Below, in pieces: positions 2,778 through 62,200 of a stretch of 64,000 nucleotides of DNA; the stretch's first letter is position 1, and each line of letters starts with the position of its first letter. The translations under genes and the position numbers were made by a program. The stretch comes from an uncultured Planctomycetales bacterium. GTDB lineage: Bacteria > Planctomycetota > Phycisphaerae > SM23-33 > FEN-1343. The notes under the pieces are model-generated. The model did not search any database and was not told where the DNA came from. It saw nothing but the letters and a program-made list of their open reading frames with translations. The stretch is from positions 4,300-68,299 of the forward strand of contig CAZHRW010000198.1 of the NCBI GenBank assembly GCA_964535025.1, in the 5' to 3' direction.

Positions 2778-4196
2778 ATGAGCGCGTACGACTGCGACTG
2801 CAAGCGGCGGCCGGCCCGTCGGACGCCCCGACATGTGGCGGTGGTGGTGCTGGCCGTCTGCGTGACAACGGCCGCGGCCGCCGACAGCGCGGTCCGCCGG
2901 CGGGTCGTCCAGGCCGCGGAGCGTCATGCCCGCGCGGCGCTGATGGAGCAGGTTTACGCCGAGCAACTCTCGCCGACGCTGACGGTCGGCTCACTGGTCA
3001 CGGCTCACCCGGCCGTCGGCGCGGAGCTGGCGTCGTGGGTGGCGTCGGTGGGGCCGGCCACCCCGCCACGCTGGGGCGAGGACGCGGCGTGCGAGGTGAC
3101 GGTGCAGGTGGCGGTGCAGTGGCTGCTGGCGCGCCTGCGGGATGCGTGCGGCGACCACGACGTCGCCGAGCTGCCCGCCGAGCGATGGGAGGCGCTGATC
3201 GACGCGGCGGGACGGCGCGTGCTCCGCGCGACGAGCGTCGCCTCGGCGCCGGCGGGCGGCGCGCCCGATCCGTCGCGGCTGCCGTCCATCTGGCGGCGGT
3301 ACGCCGATGCGGACGGCCGCGTTCGGGCCGCCGAAGCCGCCCGGGCGGATGCGGCCCGCACACTCGTGCGGCAATTCGAGCGCCATACCATCGCCAACGG
3401 TGTCACCGGCGGGGACCTGCTGGGCGAGACCCCGGCCGTGCGGGAGGCGTTCGAAGCCTTCTGCGCCCGCGCGCCGGCGATCGGGCGTCCCACCTACCGC
3501 GACGATGCGCTGATCGTGGAGGTCCGCCTGGAACTGACGGCCGCCGCGGTCGGGCGGTGGCTGACCGCCCACGCCCCGGCCCCGGCCACGGGCGACGAGG
3601 CCGCCGCCGGCGCGCTGCGGGCGTTGGCCGAGGCAACCGACACGCTCTTCGCCGCCGCCGGCAACGGCGTGCCGCCCGAGCACCTGGCGGCGGTCGCGTC
3701 GGCGCCCGCGCGGCCGGTCGTCGATGCGGCGCCGCCCTGGCCGCCGGTGCTTCAGGCTGCGGGACAGGCGGCGCCGGATGGGGCGTCGGCCCAGGCGAAG
3801 CTGCGGGCGATGCGGCGCGCCGAGGCGATCGCCCGGGCGGCGCTGGCCCGCCGGGTGGCGGCGCTGGAGGTCGCCCCGTCGGCGACGGTGGGATCGCTGG
3901 CCGAGGCGCACGGCGAGCTGCACGAGGCCGTCGGCGTTTGCGTGGCGGCGGCGCGGGTTCTGCGGTCGCCCTGGACCGCCGACGGTCGGGCGGAGGTGAT
4001 CGTCGAGCTGCCCACCGGACCGCTCGGCCGCGCCGTGGCCGTGTGGCGGTGCCGGGCGGCGGTCAGGCGAACGGCAACCCGCCCGGCATATCCTGCTGGG
4101 ACGAGTGGGGCGGCTGGAACCGCCGGGGGAAATGATCGTAGCCAGTCAGGTCGAATGGGTCGGTCCGCACCGCCCACGGCAGCTCCAGGTCGCTGA
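2778..4196 (+). CDS. hypothetical Ala/Arg-rich protein with an internal repeat
   Basis: Long ORF (2691..4196). ATG at 2778 chosen because the downstream N-terminus is hydrophobic (VAVVVLAVCVTTAAAA). Internal repeat PTLTVGSLVTAHPAVGAEL / PSATVGSLAEAHGELHEAV. The 3' end overlaps the convergent gene by about 130 nt, so boundaries are uncertain. Confidence 0.35.
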   Translation: MSAYDCDCKRRPARRTPRHVAVVVLAVCVTTAAAADSAVRRRVVQAAERHARAALMEQVYAEQLSPTLTVGSLVTAHPAVGAELASWVASVGPATPPRWGEDAACEVTVQVAVQWLLARLRDACGDHDVAELPAERWEALIDAAGRRVLRATSVASAPAGGAPDPSRLPSIWRRYADADGRVRAAEAARADAARTLVRQFERHTIANGVTGGDLLGETPAVREAFEAFCARAPAIGRPTYRDDALIVEVRLELTAAAVGRWLTAHAPAPATGDEAAAGALRALAEATDTLFAAAGNGVPPEHLAAVASAPARPVVDAAPPWPPVLQAAGQAAPDGASAQAKLRAMRRAEAIARAALARRVAALEVAPSATVGSLAEAHGELHEAVGVCVAAARVLRSPWTADGRAEVIVELPTGPLGRAVAVWRCRAAVRRTATRPAYPAGTSGAAGTAGGNDRSQSGRMGRSAPPTAAPGR

Positions 4197-5326
4197 ACAA
4201 CGCCGCTTCGCTGGCCGCCTGCGGGATGGCCGCGTCGATCCCGTCGATGATCGTCTTGGTCGACGGGCCCTCGCCCTGGATGCGGAGGAACTCCTTGCCG
4301 ATCCGGCGCACGGTCCCGGCCGACTCGAACGCGGCGTTGACCGTCAGGGTGTGCGGGCGGCACATCTCCAGCGAGCAGCGAAGCAGGGACGGATCATTCG
4401 CCTCGGCGGCGGCGATGAAGTTCTCGAACTTGGCCACGTCGAGCTGCGAGTCGTCCAGGGCCGGCTCCTCGATCCGCCCGTCGTTGGTCCGCAGGCTCGC
4501 CCGCCCCGGGCTGTGGAAGGCGACGCCCTCGCTGCCGTGCACGACGACCTCGGGGTTGAAATGCTGGTCGGCGCACAGCGTGGCCAGGAAGAAGCAGCGC
4601 GGCCCCTCGCGGGTGAGGATCTCGACGGCGGCGGTGTCCTCGCTGTCGATGGCGTGGCCGGCGTACAACTCGGCCCGCACCGCCACGGGCGTCGCCAGCG
4701 TGCGGCGGCGGGGCGAGGCGAGGTAGAGCATGTTCAGCAGGTAGTGCGCCAGCGGGTTGTTGATCGACCCGTCGAGGACCCACCGGTCGCCCAGGCGTAC
4801 CCGCCCGGCCCAGGCGGCCCGCTGGTAGTACTCCTGCTTGCGGATCCACCCGGCGGTGCAGGTGATGCGGTCGATCGTCCCCAGGGCGCCCTCGCCGACG
4901 CGGAGCTTCAGCAGCGCCATGCTGCGGCTGTGCAGCCATTGGAACCCCACCGCACAGAGACGCCCGGCGGCGCGGGCGGCGGCGACCATCTCGTCGAAGT
5001 CCTGGATGGTCGCGGCGGCGGGCTTCTCGAGGAAGACGTGGTAGCCGCTGCGGACCGCCGCGATCGTCAGCGGCGCGTGCGTGTGGATCGGCGTGGGGAT
5101 CGTCACCGCGTCCATCTTGCCGCGCATCGCGTCGAACATCACCTCCGCGTCGTTGAAGATCGCCACGCCCTGGCCACGCAACTCCTCCAGCCGCGCCGAG
5201 TGGTTCGCCGGATCGATCACCGCCGTGGCGACGATCCGGCAGGCCCCGCTGCGCTGCACCTCCTCCAACGCCCGCCAGTGATTGCTCGCGAAGCCCCCGA
5301 TCCCGAGGATCCCGATCCGCACCATG
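4063..5326 (-). CDS. Gfo/Idh/MocA family NAD(P)-dependent oxidoreductase
   Basis: MVRIGILGIGGFASNHW Rossmann N-terminus followed by the EKP motif. GGAAGGGAG ribosome-binding site upstream of the ATG at 5326. The longer ORF extension to 5649 is low-complexity and rejected. Confidence 0.8.
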
Positions 5327-5704
5327 GTCGACTCCCTTCCTGCAAGAGCTTTCTTTGCAGAACTATAGCGAACCGACCCGGCCGCGACAAGCCTGCGGTC
5401 GCCCCCGGGCGATCTGCCAGGCGACCCTTCGGGGCGGTCCCGTCGTATAATGCATGCAAGGCATGGAAAGCACGGTGGATGCGGACGGCGGATCCCCGTG
5501 CGGGTCACGAACTTACCCGGGACGGGGCCTGTTTTGGCGAACCTCATTGCCACACGAGTGGCGTTCCATTGCCACAAGTACTCGAAGCCCGCGGCCGCTA
5601 CAATCGAAGGACGGCCGCTGGCATCCGGGGGATTTTCGGGTATACTCAAGGGACTTCCCGCCGGGTCGGGATTCGGGTTGTGTGACGTAAGTGGAGACGA
5701 AGTA

Positions 5705-6535
5705 ATGTATAAGGTCGTCAGTACCGAAGTGATCGCCCCGTCGGTGCACCGGCTGGTGGTCCAGGCCCCCCGGGTTGCCGCGGCCCGCCGGCCGGGTCAG
5801 TTCGTGATCGTTCGCTCCGGCACGGATGCCGAGCGGATCCCGCTGACGATCGCCGACGCGGACGCCGAGGCGGGCACGATCACGCTGATCGTCCAGGCCA
5901 TCGGTCAGGGCACGCGGGAGATCGCCGCCGTCGGCGCCGGCGGCGCGCTGCGCGACGTGGCGGGCCCGCTGGGCCAGCCGACGGAGATTCGCAAGGTCGG
6001 TCGGGTCGCCTGTGTCGGCGGGGGGGTCGGCACGGCGGTGCTGTTCCCGCTGGCCAAGGCGCTGGCCGAGGCGGGCAACGCGGTGACCACGATCATCGGC
6101 GGGCGGAGCGAGCCGTTCGTGATCCTCCGCGACGAGCTGGCCGCCTTCAGTACCGAGGTGCTCACGGCGACCGAGGACGGCTCACTGGGGGTCAAGGGCT
6201 TTGTGACGGCGGTGCTGGCGGAGCTGCTGGACGATCCGGCCCGCGTGCCGGCGGCCGTCTACGCCGTCGGCCCCGTGCCGATGATGGCCGCGGTGGTCGA
6301 GCAGACGCGGCCGAGGCAGATCAAGACGATCGTCAGCCTCAACCCGATCATGATCGACGGGACGGGCATGTGCGGCGGCTGCCGCGTCACCGTCGGCGGG
6401 CAGACGAAGTTCGCCTGCGTGGACGGCCCGGAATTCGACGGCCACGAGGTCGACTTCGTCGAGCTGGCCGATCGCCAGCGAACCTACGCCGAGCACGAGT
6501 GCCGGCTCACCGCCGGTCCGCCGGAGCATGACTGA
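5705..6535 (+). CDS. NfnA/SudB-like FAD and [2Fe-2S] electron-transfer subunit (PyrK-like ferredoxin-NADP reductase fold)
   Basis: ATG at 5705 with a GGAGACG ribosome-binding site. PyrK-like sequence with the C-terminal Cys cluster CGGCRVTVGG..FACVDGPEF. Stop overlaps the start of the next gene (TGATG). Confidence 0.8.
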   Translation: MYKVVSTEVIAPSVHRLVVQAPRVAAARRPGQFVIVRSGTDAERIPLTIADADAEAGTITLIVQAIGQGTREIAAVGAGGALRDVAGPLGQPTEIRKVGRVACVGGGVGTAVLFPLAKALAEAGNAVTTIIGGRSEPFVILRDELAAFSTEVLTATEDGSLGVKGFVTAVLAELLDDPARVPAAVYAVGPVPMMAAVVEQTRPRQIKTIVSLNPIMIDGTGMCGGCRVTVGGQTKFACVDGPEFDGHEVDFVELADRQRTYAEHECRLTAGPPEHD

Positions 6536-7950
6536 TGAGTGACAATACCCTGACGGCCAAGCAGCGGATGGCCATCGAGCGGACGACCATGCCCGAGCAG
6601 GACGCCGCCGAACGGGCGCGGAACTTCGAGGAAGTGAACCTCGGGCTCGCCGAGGCCGCGGCCGTCCGGGAAGCCCAACGCTGCCTGATGTGCAAGCACC
6701 GCCCCTGCGTGGCGGGTTGCCCGGTGCGCGTGCGGATCCCCGAGTTCATCGCCAAGGTGGCCGAGGGCGACTTCGCCGCGGCGGCGAGAATCCTCCGCGC
6801 CGACAACGCTCTGCCGGCCACCACCGGCCGCGTCTGCCCCCAGGAGGTGCAGTGCGAGGCCCGGTGCGTCCGCGGGCGGACGGGTCAGCCGGTCGCCATC
6901 GGCTGGCTGGAGCGATTCGTGGCCGACTGGTCGGCCGGCCGGGTCGACCCCGAGCCGCCGGCGCCGCCGACGGGCAAGTCGGTGGCGGTGATCGGCTCGG
7001 GCCCCGGGGGGCTGACCGCCGCGGGCGAGCTGGCCCGGCGGGGCCACGCCGTGACGATCTTCGAGGCCCTGCACGCCCCCGGCGGCGTGCTGCGGTACGG
7101 CATTCCGGAGTTCCGGCTGCCCAAGCGGATCGTCGACGCCGAGGTCGCCGCCCTCGAGGCGATGGGCGTGACGGTCGAATACAACGTGATCGTGGGCAAG
7201 ACGCTCACCCTCGACGAGATCCGCCGGACGTTCGACGCCTGCTTCATCGCCAACGGCGCGGGGCTGCCAATGTTCCTGAACATCCCCGGCGAGAACCTCA
7301 AGGGCGTCTACTCGGCCAACGAGTACCTCACTCGCGTCAATCTGATGGGCGCCTGGCGCGGCGACCGCAGCCGCACGCCCGTCATCCGGGGCCGCCAGGT
7401 CGTCGTCTTCGGCGGCGGCAACACCGCCATGGACGCCGCTCGCACCGCTCGGCGGCTCGGCGCCGAGCGGGTCGTGCTGGCGTACCGGCGGACGGAGAAG
7501 GAAATGCCCGCCCGCGCCGAGGAGGTGGTCCACGCCCGCGCCGAAGGCATCGAGATGATGCTGCTGGTGTCCCCGCTGGAGATCCTCGCCGCCGAGGACG
7601 GCTGGGTTCGCGGCGTACGGCTGCAGCGGATGGAGTTGGGCGAGCCCGACGCGTCGGGGCGCCGTCGCCCGCTGCCGATCGACGGCAGCGACTTCGAGCT
7701 GGCCGCCGACGTCGCCGTCGTTGCGATCGGCACCCGCGCCAACCCGCTGCTGACCCGCACGTGCCCGGAGCTGGCGCTCAACCAGTGGGGCAACATCGAG
7801 ACGGACGAGCACCACCGGACCTCGCTGGACGGCGTCTTCGCCGGCGGCGACATCGTCCGCGGCGGCGCTACCGTCATCCTCGCCATGGGCGACGGGAAGG
7901 ACGCGGCCGCGGCGATCGACGCGTATCTCAGCGAAGGCGAGGCGTCGTAG
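6535..7950 (+). CDS. NfnB/SudA/GltD-like subunit (glutamate synthase small-chain homologue, NADPH-binding, Fe-S)
   Basis: CLMCKHRPCVAGCPV and C..VQCEARC Fe-S motifs. VAVIGSGPGGLTAAGELARRGH dinucleotide fold. Translationally coupled to the upstream PyrK-like gene, as in NfnAB/SudBA pairs. Confidence 0.85.
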   Translation: MSDNTLTAKQRMAIERTTMPEQDAAERARNFEEVNLGLAEAAAVREAQRCLMCKHRPCVAGCPVRVRIPEFIAKVAEGDFAAAARILRADNALPATTGRVCPQEVQCEARCVRGRTGQPVAIGWLERFVADWSAGRVDPEPPAPPTGKSVAVIGSGPGGLTAAGELARRGHAVTIFEALHAPGGVLRYGIPEFRLPKRIVDAEVAALEAMGVTVEYNVIVGKTLTLDEIRRTFDACFIANGAGLPMFLNIPGENLKGVYSANEYLTRVNLMGAWRGDRSRTPVIRGRQVVVFGGGNTAMDAARTARRLGAERVVLAYRRTEKEMPARAEEVVHARAEGIEMMLLVSPLEILAAEDGWVRGVRLQRMELGEPDASGRRRPLPIDGSDFELAADVAVVAIGTRANPLLTRTCPELALNQWGNIETDEHHRTSLDGVFAGGDIVRGGATVILAMGDGKDAAAAIDAYLSEGEAS

Positions 7951-7987
7951 GGCCGGAGCTTCCTTCATGCGCGAAAGGAGCGTGGCG

Positions 7988-8497
7988 ATGCAGAAGCACG
8001 TGGACTACCTCGACGCGATCAAGCTGAAGTACCCCGAGCAGGTCGTGATCGGCATCGCCCGTGACGCGGCGGGCAAGGCCAATCCGATCGCGCTGGGCTG
8101 GACGATGGTCACCTCGCACGACCCGCCCATGATGGCGGTGTCGATCGGGCTGACGCGGTACTCGCTGGAGGTGTTCCGGGCCGCCGAGGCGTTCACCGTC
8201 GCCATGCCCGCCGAAAACCAGGCCGACGAGACGATGCTGTTCGGCACCACCAGCGGACGGGACACGGACAAGTTTGCCGCGGCGGGCACGGCGTTGACGC
8301 CGGCGGCCGTGATCGACGGGGTGCTCATGAGCGACGCGGTGGCCAACTTCGAGTGCGTCAAGCGGGGGGAGATGACCACCGGCGACCACGTTATCTTCGT
8401 TGGGGAGGTTGTCGCGGCGCACCTGAACCCCGAGCGGCCCCGCCGCCTTTACACGGTCGGCGCCGGTCACGTCATGGGCGGGCTCGATCGGCGGTAG
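7988..8497 (+). CDS. flavin reductase-like (FMN-binding split-barrel) protein
   Basis: AAAGGAG ribosome-binding site 8 nt upstream of the ATG at 7988. Flavin_Reduct-type sequence (GIARDAAGKANPIALGWTMVTSHDPPMMAVSIG). Confidence 0.7.
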   Translation: MQKHVDYLDAIKLKYPEQVVIGIARDAAGKANPIALGWTMVTSHDPPMMAVSIGLTRYSLEVFRAAEAFTVAMPAENQADETMLFGTTSGRDTDKFAAAGTALTPAAVIDGVLMSDAVANFECVKRGEMTTGDHVIFVGEVVAAHLNPERPRRLYTVGAGHVMGGLDRR

Positions 8498-19784: not shown

Positions 19785-19976
19785 TCACAGCTCCCGATCG
19801 TGCCGATTCGGATCGCAGGTGCAGCCGGTCCCTTCGGCGCAGCCCTGGCAGCAGTAGACCTCGCCGCCCAGGGAGAATCCCCGCGGGTCCTGCCACTCGT
19901 CTTCCGGCTTGCCGCACCCCGGGCAGCGCATCTCGCCCTTGTCGTGTTGACGGGTTTCCTGGGTCGGGTTGGTCAT
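19785..19976 (-). CDS. bacterial metallothionein-like protein (SmtA/BmtA-type Cys pattern), 63 aa
   Basis: AAGGAG ribosome-binding site upstream of the ATG at 19976. Pattern CPGCGK..(20)..YCCQGCAEGTGCTCD resembles C.C...C..YYCSEACA.GH of SmtA. This is the only credible part of the 694-aa minus-strand ORF 19785..21869. Confidence 0.6.
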   Translation of the reverse strand: MTNPTQETRQHDKGEMRCPGCGKPEDEWQDPRGFSLGGEVYCCQGCAEGTGCTCDPNRHDREL

Positions 19977-20068: not shown

Positions 20069-20130
20069 GAAAAATCCAAATCCGAAGCACGAAATACGAA
20101 GGATTTGTTTCGGATTTCGAGTTTCGTGGG
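20069..20130. repeat. AT-rich hairpin repeat, short copy (family AAATCCGAAGCACGAAAT / TTCGGATTT)
   Basis: AAATCCGAAGCACGAAATACGAA..GGATTTGTTTCGGATTTCGAGTTTCGTG in the divergent intergenic region between the metallothionein-like gene and GH38. Shares unit sequences with the copies at 47862-47978 and 54369-54547. Confidence 0.5.
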
Positions 20131-30270: not shown

Positions 30271-30306
30271 GCAAACGGCGACCCGGCGGGCCGACAAGGC
30301 GCGATT

Positions 30307-30362
30307 TCGCAACTTTGCGACTTCGATTCCCAAGGCTGCAAATTGAATTCGCAAGCTTGCGA
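30307..30362. promoter_or_regulatory. two copies of the palindrome TCGCAA-N2-TTGCGA, 42 bp centre-to-centre (candidate operator pair)
   Basis: TCGCAActTTGCGA (30307-30320) and GAATTCGCAAgcTTGCGAATTC (30345-30366, core 30349-30362), in a locally AT-rich stretch. Confidence 0.35.
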
Positions 30363-30717
30363 ATTCGAAGAAGGGACAGAAGCACAAAGACGCCGAGCTA
30401 TCTCGGTATTGCAACTCCGAAATTGTAACCCCTTGCCATTACTCACCTGCCACCCGGCATGCCCGCCCCAAAGACGGCATCTCTTTCGGCCGCTCAATGA
30501 ACCGTTCTCCCAACCGCTTCGGCGCGGCCGGGTGTGCGAGCGGCGGGCCCGGTGACAGACCGCCTCGCACGCCCCGCGCCCCGGCGGGCAAAAACCCTTG
30601 TTCCCAGCGGGGCTGGGCGTTAAGGTTCGGGCATGTGTGGGCGGTCGGCCGGGAACCCCTTCTGTGCTGGAGAGTGAAGTGGCTGCCACATACCCAACGC
30701 GGCCTCGGGCCGCTTTC

Positions 30718-46322: not shown

Positions 46323-46948
46323 CCGGCGCGCTGATCAGCTTGGTCGGCGCGCCCGGCAGCGGCAAAACGACCGTAGCGCGGTGGTTGGCGCCCGCGCTGG
46401 GCGGACGGCTCGTCCTGGAGGACTATGCCGGCAACCCCTTCCTGGCGGCGTCCTACGAAGGCGCCGACAGCCTGCGCCTGCCGGGCCAACTGTGGTTCCT
46501 CCTCTCCCGCGTCGACCAGCTCGCCGGCGGCCGCGTCGCCGAGGGCGAAGTGGTCGTCACCGACTATGGTTATCTGCAGGACCGCATCTACGCGGAGATC
46601 TGGCTGACCGGCGCGGACCTCGAGACGTACCGTCGCGTCGCCGCCCGCGTCGCCCCGCTGGTCCGGCCGGCCGACGTGCTGGTGCTGCTGGATGGGCCGG
46701 TCGGACTGCTGATGGAGCGGATCACCCGGCGCGGGCGGGGATACGAGCGGCGTTTCAGCGAGGCGTTCATCCGCCGCCTGCGCGACACCTATCGCGAACG
46801 GTTGGCCGACGTGACGACGGCGGTCGTCCGCGTCGACGTCGCCCAACGCGACCTGCGACGCCCGGGCGACCGGCGGTGGCTCGTCGACAGGATCGGCGAG
46901 GCGCTCGCCGCGCAACCGGTGATGGATGAGGACCATGGAGCACTTTGA
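46319..46948 (+). CDS. deoxynucleoside kinase family protein
   Basis: GTG start overlapping the folK stop. P-loop LVGAPGSGKTT and dNK-fold features (DYGYLQDRIYAE, LLDGP). Confidence 0.7.
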   Translation: MTGALISLVGAPGSGKTTVARWLAPALGGRLVLEDYAGNPFLAASYEGADSLRLPGQLWFLLSRVDQLAGGRVAEGEVVVTDYGYLQDRIYAEIWLTGADLETYRRVAARVAPLVRPADVLVLLDGPVGLLMERITRRGRGYERRFSEAFIRRLRDTYRERLADVTTAVVRVDVAQRDLRRPGDRRWLVDRIGEALAAQPVMDEDHGAL

Positions 46949-47798
46949 CACCCTCGAAGCGATTCGCCGAGCGGTCCGGACGGCCCGTGCGGCGGGGCGG
47001 TCGATCGCGATCGTGCCGACGATGGGCAACCTGCACGCCGGCCATGCGTCGCTGATCGACGCGCCCGTTGGCGACGGGCACTTCACCGTGGTGACGATCT
47101 TCGTCAACCCCACGCAGTTCGGCCCCAACGAAGACCTGGCCGCCTACCCGCGGACGCCCGAGGAGGACCTGGCCCTGTGCGCCCGGCGGGGGGTCGACGC
47201 GGTGTTCCTGCCGTCCGTGGAGACGATGTACCCGCGGGGGGCGCGGACGAGCGTCCACGTGGCGGGCCTGAGCGAGGTGCTGTGCGGGGCCTCGCGCCCG
47301 GGGCATTTTGACGGCGTGTGCACCGTCGTGGCCAAGCTGTTCAACATCGTCGATCCCGACGACGCATACTTCGGTCGCAAGGATGCTCAGCAGGCCATCG
47401 TTCTGCAGCGGATGGTCCGGGACCTGAATTTCCCCGTCAGCCTGCACGTGTGCCCCACGGTCCGCGAGGCCGACGGGCTGGCGATGTCGTCGCGGAACCG
47501 GTACCTCACGGCCGATCAGCGACGCCAGGCGACGGCGCTGTACGGCGCCCTGCGAATGGCCGCCGAGCGGATCGGCCAAGGCGAGACCGACGCCGCGACG
47601 GTCGCCGCGGCCATCCGGGAGCACCTGGCGGCGCACGCGCCCGACGGGGCCGTTGATTACATCGCCCTGGTCAACCCGGAGGACCTGTCGGACGTACAAG
47701 ACCTGACCGGCCCCGTGCTCATCGCCCTGGCGGTGCGGCTCGGGCGGGCGCGATTGATCGACAACCTCATGGTGGACCCGGAGGGGGAGATGACATAA
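46935..47798 (+). CDS. panC: pantoate--beta-alanine ligase
   Basis: PTMGNLHAGHASLI (HIGH-like) and FGRKDAQQ motifs. Alternative start at 46926. Confidence 0.85.
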   Translation: MEHFDTLEAIRRAVRTARAAGRSIAIVPTMGNLHAGHASLIDAPVGDGHFTVVTIFVNPTQFGPNEDLAAYPRTPEEDLALCARRGVDAVFLPSVETMYPRGARTSVHVAGLSEVLCGASRPGHFDGVCTVVAKLFNIVDPDDAYFGRKDAQQAIVLQRMVRDLNFPVSLHVCPTVREADGLAMSSRNRYLTADQRRQATALYGALRMAAERIGQGETDAATVAAAIREHLAAHAPDGAVDYIALVNPEDLSDVQDLTGPVLIALAVRLGRARLIDNLMVDPEGEMT

Positions 47799-47861
47799 CA
47801 TGCTGTTGTCGGGTTGCTTGGCTGGTCTTTGTACCCTGGACTCCAGGGGCGATTTGACAAA

Positions 47862-47978
47862 CCCGAAATCCGAAGCACGAAATATGAAACAAACGAAAAA
47901 ACAGATAAGACGGCGAGGACCCAAACGGGCGGATTCACGCGTTTGTTTCATGTTTTGTGCTTCGAGCTTCGGATTTGA
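47862..47978. repeat. AT-rich composite hairpin repeat (about 30-bp arms, 45-nt loop) between panC and panD
   Basis: Left arm AAATCCGAAGCACGAAATATGAAACAAACG. Right arm CGTTTGTTTCATGTTTTGTGCTTCGAGCTTCGGATTT is a near-exact reverse complement. Preceded by the small palindrome CCCTGGAcTCCAGGG (47834-47848). Confidence 0.6.
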
Positions 47979-48029
47979 GGGCTGAGGCCGGTCGCCAGGC
48001 AAGAGGCCTTAGCGAAGATCTGAGGGATC

Positions 48030-48389
48030 ATGGTGTTGCGTCACATGCTGCGAGCGAAGATCCACCGGGCGACGGTGACCGAGTCCCGGCTCGACTACAT
48101 CGGCTCGATTACGATCGACCGGACGGTGATGGAGGCCGCGGGGATCGTCGAGAACGAGCGCGTCCTCGTGGCCGACCTGGCCAACGGGTCGCGCCACGAG
48201 ACGTACGTCATCGCCGGACAGCCCGGCAGCGGCACGATTTGCGTCAACGGCGCCGCCGCCCACCTGGTGCACCCGGGCGAGAAGGTCATCATCATGTGTT
48301 ACGGCCTGGTCGACGAACGGGAACTGGCCGACCATCGGCCGGTGATCGTGCTGATGGGCGAGAACAACACCATCGACGAGATCCGATAG
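48030..48389 (+). CDS. panD: aspartate 1-decarboxylase
   Basis: MVLRHMLRAKIHRATVTE aligns with the PanD N-terminus. GSIT pro-enzyme cleavage-site context (YIGSITID). GAGGGA ribosome-binding site. Confidence 0.85.
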   Translation: MVLRHMLRAKIHRATVTESRLDYIGSITIDRTVMEAAGIVENERVLVADLANGSRHETYVIAGQPGSGTICVNGAAAHLVHPGEKVIIMCYGLVDERELADHRPVIVLMGENNTIDEIR

Positions 48390-53797: not shown

Positions 53798-54319
53798 TCA
53801 GAAGTCTTTCGAACAGCCGATCTGCCGTGCGGGAACGCCGGCCATGACGGCGTAGTCGGGCGTGTCGGTGGTGACGACGGCGTTGGCGGCGATGAGGTTG
53901 GCACGGCCGATGCGGACGCCGGCGGTGACGGTAACGCCCGAGGCCAGCCACGTGCCGTGGGCGATGACGATGGGGCCCCGCTTGTGGGGCGCGCTGAAGT
54001 CGTCGCGTTCGGGGTTGAAGCGGTGGTCGCCGCCGGTGACGGTGCAGTGCGGGCCGATCAGGACGAGATCCTCCAGCGTGATGTGCCCGCCGCCGATGTA
54101 GGTCCACAGGCCGACGTAGACGTCGTCGCCGATGACGAGGTTGTCCGGGTAGGGTAGCGTCGCCCCCGGCGCCAGCCGCAGCCGCTTGCCGCACGACTTG
54201 GTGTACGGCGCGACCAGCGCCCCGCGGCGGAGGTTGTCCTCGTCCTTGTTGCTCAGCAGAATGTAACGATCGAACTGGTCGCGGATCGCCGGGTCCAGCT
54301 CGTGGTGGGGCAGGGGCAT
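53798..54319 (-). CDS. hexapeptide-repeat (LbH) sugar O-acetyltransferase, maltose/galactoside acetyltransferase-like
   Basis: Left-handed beta-helix repeats (IGDDVYVG, IGPHCTV, IAHGTWLASGVTVTAGVRIGRANLIAANAVV). Confidence 0.75.
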   Translation of the reverse strand: MPLPHHELDPAIRDQFDRYILLSNKDEDNLRRGALVAPYTKSCGKRLRLAPGATLPYPDNLVIGDDVYVGLWTYIGGGHITLEDLVLIGPHCTVTGGDHRFNPERDDFSAPHKRGPIVIAHGTWLASGVTVTAGVRIGRANLIAANAVVTTDTPDYAVMAGVPARQIGCSKDF

Positions 54320-54368: not shown

Positions 54369-54547
54369 TAAAGCACGAAATCCGAAGCACGAAATCCGAA
54401 ACAAACGGAAAAACGGACAAGACGGCAAGGCCCCGAACGGGCAAGCCGGAACGCAGCTTTTCGTCTGTCTGCCGTTTGTCTTGTCGTTTGTCCGTTTTGC
54501 TGTTTCGGATTTGTTTCGTATTTCGAGCTTCGAATTTCGGATTTCTA
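54369..54547. repeat. AT-rich composite hairpin repeat, longest copy with a nested inner palindrome
   Basis: AAAGCACGAAATCCGAAGCACGAAATCCGAAACAAACGG ... CGGATTTGTTTCGTATTTCGAGCTTCGAATTTCGGATTT. Inner palindrome AAACGGACAAGACGGCA / TGCCGTTTGTCTTGTCGTTTGTCCGTTT. Abuts the stop codon at 54545-54547. Confidence 0.6.
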
Positions 54548-59275: not shown

Positions 59276-62200
59276 GTGAACGATGAAACCTATGGAGCCG
59301 ACCTGAACGAACGGGCCACCTTCGCCGAGGCGCCCCGCCGCCGTCGCCGGTGGCTGCTGCCGGCGGTCGCGGTGCTCGTCGCGGCGGCGGTGGGAATCGG
59401 CGGCTGGTGGTACGCCGCCACGCCGCACTCGGCGGCCGAGCAGCTCGAGGCGGCCGCGGCGGCGAAGGCCGATTACCTCGGGCGGGCGGGGCAACTGGCG
59501 GCGGACGAGGCGGCGGCCGAGCGCGAGAAGGTGGTCGAGGCCTACAGGCGGGTCTTCACGGCCTTCGAGGCCACCGACGAGCAGGCCGCGACGGCCCATG
59601 AGCAACTCGCTCAGCTCCACGACCACGCCGGCGACACCGCCGCCGCCCGCCGGTGGTGGACGCAATTGATCGACCGCTACGGCGAGACGGCCCAGGCCCG
59701 CGACGCCTACGAGGCGCTCATCGACAGCTACCTCGCCGAGGCCAAGTCGCTGCTCGCGGCCGACCCGGACGCCGCCGGGGAACGGCTCGACCAGGCCGTC
59801 GACGTCTGCCGGGGATTCGTCGACCGTTACGGGACCGACGACCCCGACGCGCCGGCGGTGGCCATGCGCCGCTGCCGTATCCTCGACGACCTGATCGGCG
59901 AGCCCGCCGAGGCGATCCAGGCGGCGCTGGAGGACTTCGTCGCCACCTACGGCGACAGCGACCTGGTCGATGAGGCCCTCTGGCGGCTGGGCCGCCTCCA
60001 CGAGCGGATCGCCGAGCCGCGAGCGGCGGCGGCGTATTACGAACGACTCATCAACGACTACCCCGACTCGCCCTGGCTGAAGCAGGCCGAGATCGGCCGC
60101 GCCCGTGCCGTCAGCGAGTTCGACAGCGAACGGGGCGAGGCGCTCTGGCGGGAGCTGGCGGCCAAGTACGCCGACGACCCCGAGATCGAGCACGAAGCGC
60201 GGCGTGAAGCCGAGCGGCTCGAAGCGCAACAGCAGGCCGAGGCCGATCGCGAGCAGGCCGAGACGGCCCAGCGGGACGCCCGGGACTACCGCCGCCGGCG
60301 CTACGGCGGCGGCGGGGGCGCCGGCGGGGGCGGGCCCGTTGACAGCGGCTGGGGCAAGCCCATCCCGCCCAGCGAGATGCTCCGCGACTTCATCGACCAG
60401 AAGGTCGACGCCGAGCACTATCGCCTGGAGCTCACGGTCGACCCGGACGCCCACGCGCTGGAGATCACCGGTTCGGTCGTCCTGGTCAACGGCGGCCAGG
60501 CGAAGGAGGATTTCCTCCTCATGCTCGGGCCGCTGTTCGAGCCGGGCGCGTTCGCCCTGGACGGCCGTCCGGTCGAGGTCGTCCGCCCCTCGGGCAAGGC
60601 CGAGGTGATCCAGGTGCGCCTGGACGAGCCCTGGGCGGCCGGCGCGCGAGCGACGCTGACGTTCGCCTACACCGCCACCGTTGAGCCGCTCGAATGGCCC
60701 GAGACGCTCGATGAGCAACTGCTCGATCAGCTATCGGCCCGGCGTCCGGCAGGGCTCTTGGTGGCGTCCCCGGTTCCGTCAGCCCCGCAGGGGCGGCCTG
60801 ATTCTGCCGGGGGCGTCAGCCCCCGGTGTCAGGGCTTCTTCCGCGCTGAGCCCCGGAGAGGCGACCTGATGCTCCCGGGGGCGTCAGCCCCCCGGGCCAT
60901 CGCGTCAGGATGCCGCATGGGCAAACTGAAGCCCCCGCGCCCGTCGCGCGCCCACGGCCGCACGGGGGCGCGCCTGTGGGCGGCGCAGGTGTCTGACGAC
61001 GGCGACGAGACGCCGCCCGCGCCCGAGACGATCGCCGGGCTTCTGCGGAACCCGGGTCTGCAACTGCAGATCAACGACAGCGGCTACGCCCTCAGCGGGG
61101 CGGCGTGGTATCCGGTGACGATCTTCGGCGACCTGTTCACCGCCGAGATCGCCGTGACGCTGCCGGAGGATCTGACGGTCCTGTGCAGCGGCGCCGCGGC
61201 CGGCGAGCGGACCGCCGACGGCCGGCGGACGACGACGTGGCGGTGCGAAGAGCCCTATTTCGGCCTGTATTTCGCCTACGGCCCCTACGAAAGCGCCTCG
61301 CGTGACGTGGACGGCCTGACCATCAGCGTCCACTTTTTAGCCCAACGGCGGGCCGAACAGCGGGCCGAACAGCAGGCTGATCAAGCCGCTCGCATGGAGG
61401 CGTATCTTGACGTCGCCGAGGCGATCCTCACCGAGTACATTGCGCACTTCGGCCCGTTCCCGTTCGAGAAGCTGGCGATGGCGGAGGTCAAGCTGCCGCC
61501 GATCCTCGGCGGCGTCGGCCCGGCGAGCCTGACGTTCCTGCACCACGGTGTCGTCGCGGGGCGCGAGGCGGTGCCGGTCAACCTGTTGGCCCACGAGCTC
61601 AGCCACCAGTGGTGGGGCAACCAGGTGCCGATCAACCTCATCGACGAGCGCTACAGCCAGTGGCTCTCGGAGGGCTTCGCCACCTACAGCGACGCGCTGT
61701 ACACCGAATGGAGCGAGGGCGCCGGGCCGTTCCGCGAGCACATCCGCGAGCTGGGGGGGCTTTATCTGGAGCAGTCCGCCCACGTCCGCGAGGAGGCCAT
61801 CGTCGAGACCTTCATGGGCCAGAGCCCGCTGTACCGCCCGGTCGTCTACGAGAAGGGCGCCCTGGTCCTGCACGCCCTGCGCTACGTGCTCGGCGACGAG
61901 ACCTTTTTCGAGGTGCTGCGGGAGTACGTGCGGACGTATGCGTTCACGCCGTCCACGGTGGACGATTTCCGCCGCCTGGCCGCCGAGCGGGCGGGCGAGA
62001 ATCTCGACTGGTTCTTCGACGAGTGGCTCGACCGGCCGGGCTGCCCGCACATCGAGCTGGCCGACGTCACGGTCGAGCCGGGCGACGGGGAGGGCGTCTG
62101 GACGGTCGTCGTCTCACTCGCCCAGCCGGCCCACCTCAGCCGCATGCCGATCGACGTGGTGGTCCTCGGCGACGACGGCCGCGCCCGCCGCGTGCGAACG

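Follow-up and report, generated by a model that had tools for sequence, protein, structure and literature searches.

What kind of element is the AT-rich hairpin that separates panC from panD in this 64-kb stretch of DNA (hereafter, the window), and does it serve its host? Its neighbors, both on the plus strand, are panC upstream (pantoate-beta-alanine ligase, 46926–47798; PF02569, E = 2.8e-105) and panD downstream (aspartate 1-decarboxylase, 48030–48389; PF02261, E = 8.6e-47). The spacer between them contains, at positions 47858–47977, a 120-nt imperfect inverted repeat without an ORF, whose GC content was 45.8%, compared with 69.1% for the whole window. Two arms of 38 nt each (47858–47895 and 47940–47977), which are 84% complementary, enclose 44 nt, and the RNA fold of 47830–47985 had a free energy of −60.1 kcal/mol (z = −5.97), a stability equaled by none of 200 shuffled sequences. 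The left arm, on the plus strand, is an A-rich array of heptamers (CAAACCCG AAATCCG AAGCACG AAATATG AAACAAACG) that includes an 18-mer characteristic of the family at 47866–47883 and matched the nhmmer arm profile at 47866–47894. The right arm, also given on the plus strand, is the T-rich inverted heptamer array (…GTGCTTCGAGCTTCGGATTTG), in which the reverse 18-mer occurs with three mismatches at 47959–47976. The variable center, or apex (47896–47939, no strand assigned), is richer in GC than the arms (0.52), and a terminator scan detected there a weak terminator-like stem (47923–47948) followed by CATGTTTTGT. A small perfect hairpin on the plus strand, CCCTGG-ACT-CCAGGG (47835–47849), lies upstream of the element; no counterpart of it was found at the other two copies in the window or in the spacers of relatives. 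The original prediction had described a conspicuously AT-rich element of approximately 120 bp preceded by a second small perfect hairpin, and both features were recovered; the long imperfect hairpin that it proposed was also present, but the repeated unit is a 7-nt module and not the CGAAAT/ATTTCG hexamer.

The 18-mer AAATCCGAAGCACGAAAT occurs exactly at 20078, 47866, and 54378, where 0.01 chance matches would be expected, and degenerate reverse copies were located at 47959 and 54520. The second copy of the element (54371–54540, no strand assigned) is a 170-nt hairpin (dG −77.4, z = −5.4) situated between two minus-strand genes, with a stop codon at 54545–54547 and the next start at 54319 according to GC3 frame analysis. 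The left arm and interior of the two long copies (47859–47930 and 54371–54442) share 86% identity. The third copy (20078–20125, no strand assigned) is a short or internally deleted form of approximately 50 nt (z = −2.6) located in a divergent intergenic region, flanked on one side by a small minus-strand ORF (start 19976) and on the other by a plus-strand GH38 gene. Related copies had been predicted near 20069–20130 and 54369–54547, all in intergenic positions; all three copies proved intergenic, and the panC and panD identities were confirmed by Pfam. No further copies were found in the 64-kb window, where clusters of CGAAAT at 61.2 and 63.7 kb and other AT-rich islands were considered as candidates and found to be unrelated to the family.

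The gene order aminotransferase–HPPK–dNK–panC–panD–lgt is kept in relatives L121–L124, whose panC–panD spacers are 39–85 nt long and lack the element, compared with a spacer of 231 nt in the window. The last 50 nt of the window spacer could be aligned to the spacers of the relatives; this ancestral part (47979–48029, plus strand, …CGCCAGGCAAG…) is homologous to their short spacers and delimits the inserted DNA on its right-hand side. The element is an insertion, the syntenic panC–panD spacers of the relatives being short and without it; this comparison of filled and empty sites, made at 68–83% PanC identity, is too distant to fix the exact junctions. The panC–panD copy is shown to have been inserted after its lineage split from relatives with 81–83% PanC identity. 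A search for target-site duplications, which had been suggested as a check, revealed no consistent duplication among approximately 75 elements inspected, and the ends were ragged runs of AAATYCG.

The family extends far beyond the window. The exact 18-mer was present in more than 119 genome contigs, which represent at least 12 phylum-level groups; by our own arithmetic, a random 18-mer would match approximately 17 times in 596 Gb. The comparison sequences were nearly all MAGs or metagenome contigs, in which repeats can be misassembled. Among the matches listed, the hosts included Desulfobacterota, Planctomycetota, many CPR/Patescibacteria, Aminicenantes, Omnitrophota, Chloroflexi, Verrucomicrobia, Victivallales, Hydrogenedentes, Binatia, Auribacterota, and Gammaproteobacteria, and nearly all of the listed matches extended into a common arm consensus and had an inverted partner. 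A search with a core motif selected without reference to the 18-mer matched more than 120 metagenome contigs. The idea of a dispersed MITE- or REP-like family was right in kind, since the element is a multi-copy inverted-repeat insertion absent from the relatives' spacer, and the family turned out to be far larger than had been guessed, reaching well beyond one genome.

With elements delimited by arm matching (delimitation based on the minimum free energy overshot the boundaries), 459 arm matches were found in 245 sequences comprising the window and the collected loci. Copy density was approximately 25–50 per Mb, and most members lay outside rRNA genes, in ordinary intergenic or operon spacers, and contained no ORF. 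Orientation relative to genes was random, with members found in either direction; 5 of 42 classifiable copies, and likewise the window copy at 20078, were positioned between divergent genes. A BLAST search for carriage by phages or plasmids returned only 12 viral contigs and no plasmids, a count from which the low-complexity filter may have hidden matches. In a Desulfobacterota lineage (L012, L021, L048, and L058), the hairpin was observed inside a composite repeat of 250–300 nt, from which no insertion-sequence boundaries or junction information emerged. No published description of the family was found by sequence or keyword (the literal sequence gave a single coincidental primer match), nor was any found in the literature on MITE, heptamer, or hairpin families in the host phyla.

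Across the family, two inverted arms of approximately 30–55 nt consist of heptamers, then AAACAAAT, then YCAAA-type units, and they enclose either a short variable apex, as in the hairpin-only copies including all three in the window, or a gene of approximately 120 aa. Each arm is an array of 7-nt modules (AAATYCG, AAGCACG, AATATCG, and others) in which CGAA recurs invariantly every 7 nt, at alignment columns 6–9, 13–16, and 20–23, while the units themselves differ and the array is inverted. The GC content of the arms was approximately 35% and nearly independent of that of the host (slope 0.23), whereas that of the apex tracked it (slope 0.9). Arm pairing held in 81.3% of cells, compared with 83.1 ± 0.5% when partners were shuffled between elements, and all 500 shuffles gave values at least as high. 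Cells changed on both sides numbered 13 against 32.8 expected, indicating no compensatory excess, with which a separate column test agreed, and the RNAalifold consensus did not recover the stem. Transition mismatches between arms that could be read as G-U wobble were about equally frequent on the sense and antisense strands (89 and 84, respectively). The two arms of an element also tended to differ at one module, with AAGCACG opposite AATATCG, and same-class pairs were fewer than expected (7 versus approximately 17). The arms are thus conserved as sequence and not as pairing partners, and the constant CGAA, host-independent GC content, lack of covariation, and lack of a G-U strand bias together form the pattern of protein-read terminal inverted repeats, as opposed to that of a terminator or a structured RNA. 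Half-elements were also considered as 5'-UTR motifs and were rejected, as their orientation relative to genes was random and many were simply decayed hairpins.

Some long members carry, between their arms, a gene of approximately 120 aa encoding a four-helix-bundle protein of PF05635/TIGR02436. This is the family of the '23S rRNA IVS protein' S23p, and PF05635 resembles Avd, the protein of diversity-generating retroelements (DGRs) (PMC10053308). ORFs of this family flanked by the arms were identified in L178, L202, L064, and L195, and also in Binatia; the 13 Binatia contigs cover one orthologous locus and do not count as independent events. Gene-bearing copies were rare, with 6 PF05635-like ORFs (4 of them directly flanked by arms) compared with approximately 230 hairpins in 1.7 Mb of DNA selected for hairpins, and no PF05635 gene was found in the 64-kb window. 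The only genes seen between arms were PF05635, in several unrelated hosts, and a single NOV_C ORF; other widely spaced arm pairs enclosed non-coding DNA. PF05635/TIGR02436 proteins are themselves very abundant, each homology search returning thousands of cluster representatives, and most PF05635 homologues were located on contigs of 0.5–3 kb. All-against-all clustering of 857 neighboring ORFs from 119 loci yielded only generic families, such as ABC ATPases, and no linked mobilizing gene. The four-helix-bundle superfamily is shared with Avd, but no reverse transcriptase or template/variable-repeat pair was present near the family elements.

The nearest solved structure was 2RLD, whose deposited model comprises five chains. 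In Bacteroides, PF05635 genes that encode close homologues of this protein occupy two spacers, araD|araA and aminotransferase|DAHP-synthase, where they are flanked by 31-nt inverted repeats, 94–97% complementary, composed of tandem AATTGAC heptamers (×4). The presence of heptamer inverted repeats around these distant genes shows that the architecture is general. True tandem heptamers of this kind recall STRR-type arrays. The arms of the present family differ from the cyanobacterial STRR and the TAACTGA repeats (Beggiatoaceae, Cyanobacteria, and Bacteroidetes) in that their heptamers are degenerate, arranged in a fixed order, and inverted, whereas repeats of the STRR and TAACTGA type are tandem identical direct repeats before start codons. 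Any connection of PF05635 genes with the STRR or TAACTGA repeats is conjecture.

Bacterial rRNA intervening sequences (IVSs) have been known for over 30 years. Those of Leptospira, Coxiella burnetii (23S helix 45), and CPR resemble the family in having a terminal-repeat stem around a PF05635 ORF of approximately 120 aa, in being AT-rich relative to the host, and in their sporadic occurrence and presumed horizontal transfer (PMC4990558, PMC11270868). In Coxiella, the 23S IVS is bounded by 28-bp terminal inverted repeats, whose stem is cut by RNase III, and it contains an S23p ORF; where it came from is unclear, and derivation from a mobile element has been suggested (PMC4990558). Excision by RNase III is known for the IVSs of Coxiella, Salmonella, and Leptospira, and a 2016 study stated that IVS 'functionality and origin ... 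remain unclear' (PMC4990558). ORFs of the 23S_rRNA_IVP type occur in both 16S and 23S insertions of CPR (PMC11270868). Some members of the present family likewise reside at the tips of rRNA helices, and some carry the PF05635 ORF. In L025, the tip of a 16S helix carries a 138-nt insertion that contains one element, and in L022, 4 of 5 elements lie inside the 23S gene; in the part of the 23S alignment examined, three of the latter corresponded to insertions, one of them in the helix 25 loop. The panC–panD copy has the long-stem terminal inverted repeats typical of IVSs (38-nt arms, z = −5.97), but its 44-nt center holds no ORF and therefore no PF05635/S23p gene, and the window copies are found in panC|panD, operon, and divergent spacers and not at a 16S or 23S helix tip. 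Homology to the classical IVSs would rest on the shared ORF family and architecture and not on a comparison of arm sequences with the repeats of Coxiella or Leptospira. The literature searched yielded no account of IVS-type elements dispersed outside rRNA genes, or of arms built from heptamer modules.

We consider it likely that the panC–panD hairpin is a non-coding, MITE-like member of a cross-phylum selfish inverted-repeat family whose complete members have the architecture of IVSs. An ordinary MITE would instead have its arms read by a transposase encoded elsewhere, with the four-helix-bundle gene carried as passenger cargo in a few copies. Bacterial MITEs (Correia/NEMIS of Neisseria, ERIC/IRU, and RUP) are 50–200-nt non-coding inverted repeats that are multi-copy, intergenic, often co-transcribed, and variably present among relatives, and RNA hairpins of Correia elements are substrates of RNase III. 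The family is similarly small, AT-rich, and numerous (three copies in 64 kb), with inverted-repeat arms conserved without covariation and genome-specific subfamilies, and it is present in the window lineage and absent from the L121–L124 spacers. However, no transposase-bearing parent with the same terminal repeats was found among the 857 neighboring ORFs, and no transposase was encoded beside any of approximately 230 elements; no consistent target-site duplication was seen in the elements inspected either. No gene other than PF05635, in several unrelated hosts, and the one NOV_C ORF ever appeared between the arms, and the distant Bacteroides PF05635 lineage has its own, different heptamers, which looks like co-evolution of protein and repeat rather than cargo. 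To our knowledge, individual MITE families do not extend beyond one genus or family, whereas the arm sequence here is common to at least 12 phyla and the gene-bearing relatives encode the four-helix-bundle protein only. An ordinary MITE thus appears unlikely. REP/RAYT pairs are vertically inherited, which is unlike the identical arms seen across at least 12 phyla, and mobilization of a REP/REPIN-type element by a RAYT (Y1 HUH) transposase acting on a single-stranded DNA hairpin seems very improbable to us. REP, BIME, and REPIN sequences are, as is the family, intergenic, palindromic, multi-copy, and often located inside operons, and the recurrent asymmetric 3×3 mismatch (GCA opposite ATA) could provide strand choice on folded single-stranded DNA; but no Y1 transposase or RAYT gene clustered near family members. 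The arms are moreover AT-rich (approximately 35–42% GC), one A-rich and the other T-rich, with the single arm not palindromic, in contrast to GC-rich palindromes of 20–40 nt, and they lack the GTAG or CGTC tag by which the REP superfamilies are defined (PMC3733652).

Two further readings, both raised in the original prediction, would place the hairpin under host selection or selection for its shape, and both fared poorly against the family-wide data. Bidirectional terminators likewise consist of an A-rich arm, a stem, and a T-rich arm in succession, and this layout, together with the weak site at the apex, would suit an intrinsic terminator or attenuator acting in both directions between panC and panD and kept by host selection. 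However, a terminator-like apex satisfying the scan on either strand was present in only 9 of 90 family members, and the divergent contexts of 5 of 42 copies and of the window copy at 20078, together with copies inside rRNA genes, where termination would be lethal, argue against such a role. The relatives, furthermore, run their panC–panD operon without the element, and identical arm sequences across phyla are not needed for termination; we regard this reading as having very little probability. A structured ncRNA or cis-regulatory RNA selected for its hairpin shape would account for the very stable fold (z about −6) and the conservation of sequence across phyla. Against it, scans of the window and of 15 loci gave no Rfam family at gathering score, and sensitive scans of two elements gave only generic miRNA-hairpin noise at E < 10; the stem was not returned by RNAalifold, pairing was no better than with shuffled partners (81.3 versus 83.1%) and was unaccompanied by compensatory changes, G-U wobble was equal on both strands, and orientation relative to genes was random. 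Such an RNA is, in our judgment, very improbable.

Returning to the selfish inverted-repeat family, the arms would act as putative recognition sites for a protein, and their reader would most plausibly be the pentameric four-helix-bundle protein that the element itself encodes, which would serve copies without the gene in trans. The hairpin-only copies may have arisen by internal deletion of the gene. In a read-through transcript, the arms would pair into a long, imperfect stem. RNase III probably cleaves this stem, by analogy with the rRNA IVSs, and such cutting would account for the tolerance of insertions in operons and rRNA. Apart from a possible uncoupling or modulation of the two mRNAs, the panC–panD copy probably does nothing for its host; within the pantothenate operon, it is most likely a neutral passenger.

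A broader proposal, which we hold only tentatively and consider possible but doubtful, is that the rRNA IVSs are only those members of a very large, cross-phylum selfish class that reside in rRNA. Its sole protein would be an Avd-like four-helix-bundle pentamer recognizing lineage-specific heptamer-array stems (CGAAATY-type here and AATTGAC-type in Bacteroides), and the gene-less hairpins would be its non-autonomous progeny; spread would be transposase-free, for example if RNase III cut out the stem-bounded RNA and the protein then assisted in its copying or re-insertion. If true, this would offer a source for the unexplained heptamer arrays (STRR and TAACTGA) of distant bacteria. The evidence links three things, namely IVS-type stems, the function-less PF05635/TIGR02436 proteins, and the dispersed AT-rich heptamer hairpins of at least 12 phyla, a connection that was not found in Rfam 15 or the searchable literature. 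In practical terms, repeats of the family break metagenome assemblies, and insertions in rRNA genes can affect rRNA-based profiling. If the link holds, the origin of IVSs would become directly testable, through binding of the protein to the flanking heptamers and release by RNase III, and Bacteroides thetaiotaomicron, which carries the PF05635–heptamer architecture, would provide a culturable system for such tests.

Pfam confirmed panC (46926-47798) and panD (48030-48389), and the spacer between them contains an imperfect inverted repeat of 120 nt (47858-47977), identified by repeat search, whose arms (47858-47895 and 47940-47977) show 84% complementarity with 44 nt in between. The GC content of the element was 45.8% vs 69.1% in the window, and the RNA fold of 47830-47985 reached -60.1 kcal/mol (z = -5.97), with 0 of 200 shuffles as stable. 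The AT-rich hairpin of the original prediction is therefore real, and the small perfect hairpin said to precede it is present at 47835-47849 (CCCTGG-ACT-CCAGGG). The related copies predicted near 20 and 54 kb were also recovered, since the 18-mer AAATCCGAAGCACGAAAT matched exactly at 20078, 47866, and 54378 (chance expectation in the window, 0.01). The hairpin at 54371-54540 spans 170 nt (z -5.4) and has 86% identity to the panC-panD copy across 72 nt; the third copy, a short form, covers ~50 nt at 20078-20125. Neither a profile search nor examination of the remaining AT-rich islands revealed additional copies within the window. The flanking genes are co-directional for the panC-panD copy (both plus strand) and for the 54371-54540 copy (minus strand; stop codon 54545, next start 54319, frames by GC3). 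The genes around the 20078 copy are divergent: a small ORF on the minus strand, starting at 19976, and a GH38 gene. This small ORF (19788-19976, minus strand; 62 aa), directly left of the hairpin, is Cys-rich (…CPGCGKPEDEW…CCQGCAEGTGCTC…), has a GC3 of 0.86 and a GGAG ribosome-binding site, and may encode a metal-binding peptide.

The gene order aminotransferase-HPPK-dNK-panC-panD-lgt is kept in relatives with PanC identities of 83, 81, and 68%, where the panC-panD spacer is 39-85 nt long vs 231 nt in the window. In the spacer alignment, 47979-48029 matched the short spacers of the relatives and ~47800 to 47978 was extra in the window, which marks the panC-panD element as an insertion on comparative grounds. 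The closest PanC homologues carry the labels Planctomycetota or Phycisphaerae, and the panD product is also encoded, in the same gene order, on the JGI metagenome contig 3300001533 MLSed_10000114.

Several other features of the window were noted. A match to the Rfam sRNA Acido-Lenti-1 was found at 60781-60826 on the minus strand (44.3 bits vs a gathering score of 37), and a second, 81% identical copy lies 68 nt downstream (60849-60906), forming a tandem pair on this Planctomycetota-like contig. An operator-like, AT-rich intergenic stretch at 30304-30391 includes two perfect palindromes, TTCGCAAGCTTGCGAA and GCAACTTTGC, and bears no relation to the hairpin family. A direct repeat at 2431-2496 and 2524-2589 (83% identical) codes for a dockerin-like motif (…DLDDFALLKQ.FG), pointing to a secreted repeat protein.

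In a scan of one genome per species, the 18-mer occurred in at least 119 contigs, vs ~17 matches expected by our own arithmetic for a random 18-mer in 596 Gb. The hosts, among the matches listed, included Desulfobacterota, many Planctomycetota, many CPR/Patescibacteria lineages, Aminicenantes, Omnitrophota, Chloroflexi, Verrucomicrobia, Victivallales, Hydrogenedentes, Binatia, Auribacterota, and Gammaproteobacteria. Nearly all matches extended into common arm sequence and had an inverted partner at 2-373 nt. The core motif CGAAATYCGAAACAAATYCAAA, chosen to avoid the 18-mer, was found in at least 120 metagenome contigs and only 12 viral contigs; plasmids gave no BLAST match to the family, although the low-complexity filter may hide matches. 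Breadth and copy numbers from both scans are lower bounds from non-random samples, and the comparison data are almost all MAGs or metagenome contigs. These matches place the element in a cross-phylum sequence family, which reaches beyond the single genome for which dispersal was originally predicted. No Rfam family matched at any threshold in the window, in 15 family loci, or in sensitive scans of two elements, and no description of the hairpin family was found in the searchable literature; the element is in no curated RNA or repeat family.

The consensus arm reads …AAATYCG-AAnnnCG-AAATYCG-AAACAAAT-YCAAA…, with a 7-nt period: CGAA never varies at columns 6-9, 13-16, and 20-23 of the profile, after which come CAA and then AA every 7-8 nt. 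The first sample was ascertained on the AAGCACG module, which biased columns 5 and 10-12, and the key tests were redone on columns outside the seed and on a second, differently seeded sample. The covariation analysis proposed with the original prediction, run on 44 elements, detected no covariation between the arms: 81.3% of cells paired vs 83.1 ± 0.5% with partners shuffled between elements, both-sided changes were rarer than in the shuffles, and RNAalifold did not recover the stem. The two arms thus pair only because each fits the consensus. Arm-to-arm transition mismatches readable as G-U wobble were also about equally frequent on the sense and antisense strands (89 vs 84), and together with the lack of an Rfam family these results do not support a structured ncRNA or a selected RNA fold. 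The other predicted role, a bidirectional terminator, fared no better, since a terminator-like apex was present in only 9 of 90 elements and divergent contexts accounted for 5 of the 42 classifiable copies (31 co-directional and 6 convergent; ORFs called by a simple longest-ORF heuristic in loci of 62% GC or less). Many copies occupy nearly the whole spacer, ending 9-20 nt from the flanking ORFs.

Arm GC was ~0.35 regardless of host GC (slope 0.23), and that of the apex, the variable centre, followed the host (slope 0.9). The module two units outside AAAC tended to differ between the arms (typically AAGCACG on one, AATATCG opposite) in the sample free of the 18-mer bias, with 7 same-class pairs vs ~17 expected, which makes a 3x3 internal loop a recurrent feature. 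The arms are conserved as sequence, and the lack of covariation, strand preference, and context preference, the host-independent arm GC, the recurrent asymmetry, and the few terminator-like apices are, taken together, the signature of terminal inverted repeats putatively read as sequence by a protein.

Other repeats accompany some copies. Small GC-rich REP-like hairpins (e.g., CCCCGTGGCTTGCCGCGGGG) are nested in the arms of L048 (where ~136 nt are inserted in the right arm), L097 (2693-2719), and L109 (5451-5480); a second small repeat family, unrelated to the AT-rich element, thus targets these sites or tolerates them. In five Desulfobacterota MAG loci (L012, L021, L048, L058, and L051), the hairpin lies inside a larger repeat of 250-300 nt, whose conserved flanks hold their own small hairpins (ACCTGGTC…GGCCAGGT and ACCGGGCCC…GGGTCCGGGT).

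All-against-all clustering of 857 neighbouring ORFs revealed no recurrent gene family near the hairpins. In the few cases with arms 358-786 nt apart, a ~120-aa ORF was enclosed that matched PF05635 (23S_rRNA_IVP) and TIGR02436 (four helix bundle protein) over curated cut-offs. Family members with a PF05635 ORF thus exist: L178, L202 (with an additional NOV_C ORF), L064 (from a Patescibacteria MAG), and L195 (a partial copy). In L064 the ORF begins within the A-rich arm and stops shortly ahead of the T-rich arm, and the predicted transcript is therefore arm-ORF-arm, the layout of rRNA intervening sequences (IVSs). Many PF05635 homologues have an N-terminus resembling a translated arm (e.g., KFETxxKFQTKQ), consistent with hairpin-only copies being internal deletions. 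At a Binatia locus, close homologues were flanked by whole hairpins or arms, its 13 contigs representing one orthologous site. The nearest solved structure, 2RLD, belongs to the same family and was deposited with five chains, and the DGR accessory protein Avd is also a PF05635 member (PMC10053308). The 64-kb window contains no PF05635 gene. L195 (1-3505; metagenome contig Ga0209536_100109683), which encodes a PepSY-domain protein among other ORFs, has a 53-nt terminal direct repeat inside the PF05635 gene and is therefore either a ~3.45-kb circular element or a contig whose assembly broke at a repeated gene. Very short contigs (0.5-3 kb) held most PF05635 homologues in the set P0121-P0360, and several proteins recurred in identical form on 18-35 contigs; these genes and repeats thus commonly break metagenome assemblies.

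Family members were also located, by alignment, inside rRNA helices. In L025 (MAG WY2.bin82; 7457-8000), the 16S gene has two insertions: one of 138 nt, at a helix tip of the 5' domain, holds an element, and the other, in an earlier helix (7537-7639), is a separate 103-nt GC-richer hairpin outside the family. Within 8 kb, L022 (2946-6350; a Saccharibacteria MAG) holds five elements, four of them inside the 23S gene (3425-6545) and the fifth (2946-3063) upstream of it. In the part of the cmscan alignment read, three fall in insertions: one of 179 nt near model position 165, one of 211 nt near position 283, and one in the loop of helix 25, a classical IVS site (PMC4990558). Its rRNA would be heavily fragmented if all elements were excised. 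The Coxiella IVS is described as a selfish element that has terminal inverted repeats of 28 bp, an RNase III-cut stem, an S23p ORF, a GC content below that of the host, and an origin given as unknown; an old proposal that the IVS ORF is a mobility factor is cited in the same paper (PMC4990558). A 2024 survey of CPR rRNA insertions reported 23S_rRNA_IVP ORFs in 16S and 23S insertions, and 'hairpin' and 'palindrom' never occur in its text (PMC11270868). The likeness of the hairpin family to Coxiella-type IVSs lies in the common ORF family and architecture.

With the 2RLD sequence as query, the genomic contexts of two close Bacteroides homologues were fetched. Both genes sit in operon spacers (araD|araA and aminotransferase|DAHP-synthase/chorismate-mutase) and are bounded by 31-nt inverted repeats with 94-97% complementarity, built of four tandem heptamers (AATTGAC … ATTGTCA) that the arm profile of the hairpin family did not match. 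The Bacteroides-type contigs L270-L275 show PF05635 insertions in these two spacers; L271, for example, has repeats at 936-999 and 1393-1423, the upstream one by itself a complete small hairpin. The Bacteroides loci and the hairpin family thus have in common a heptamer-array stem, a PF05635 gene, and an operon spacer but differ in heptamer 'vocabulary', which is what co-evolution of the protein with its putative binding repeats would produce.

Overall, the element is a multi-copy inverted-repeat insertion, and the MITE- or REP-like dispersed family originally proposed was right in kind. The four-helix-bundle protein would recognise the arms, the gene-less hairpins would be non-autonomous derivatives, and transcripts that run through the element may be substrates of RNase III, from which its tolerance in operons and rRNA would follow. 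The best classification is a new variant of the IVS-type selfish element, one that is dispersed and gene-less. The element is probably a passenger in the pantothenate operon, and the wider interest lies in the family rather than in that operon.
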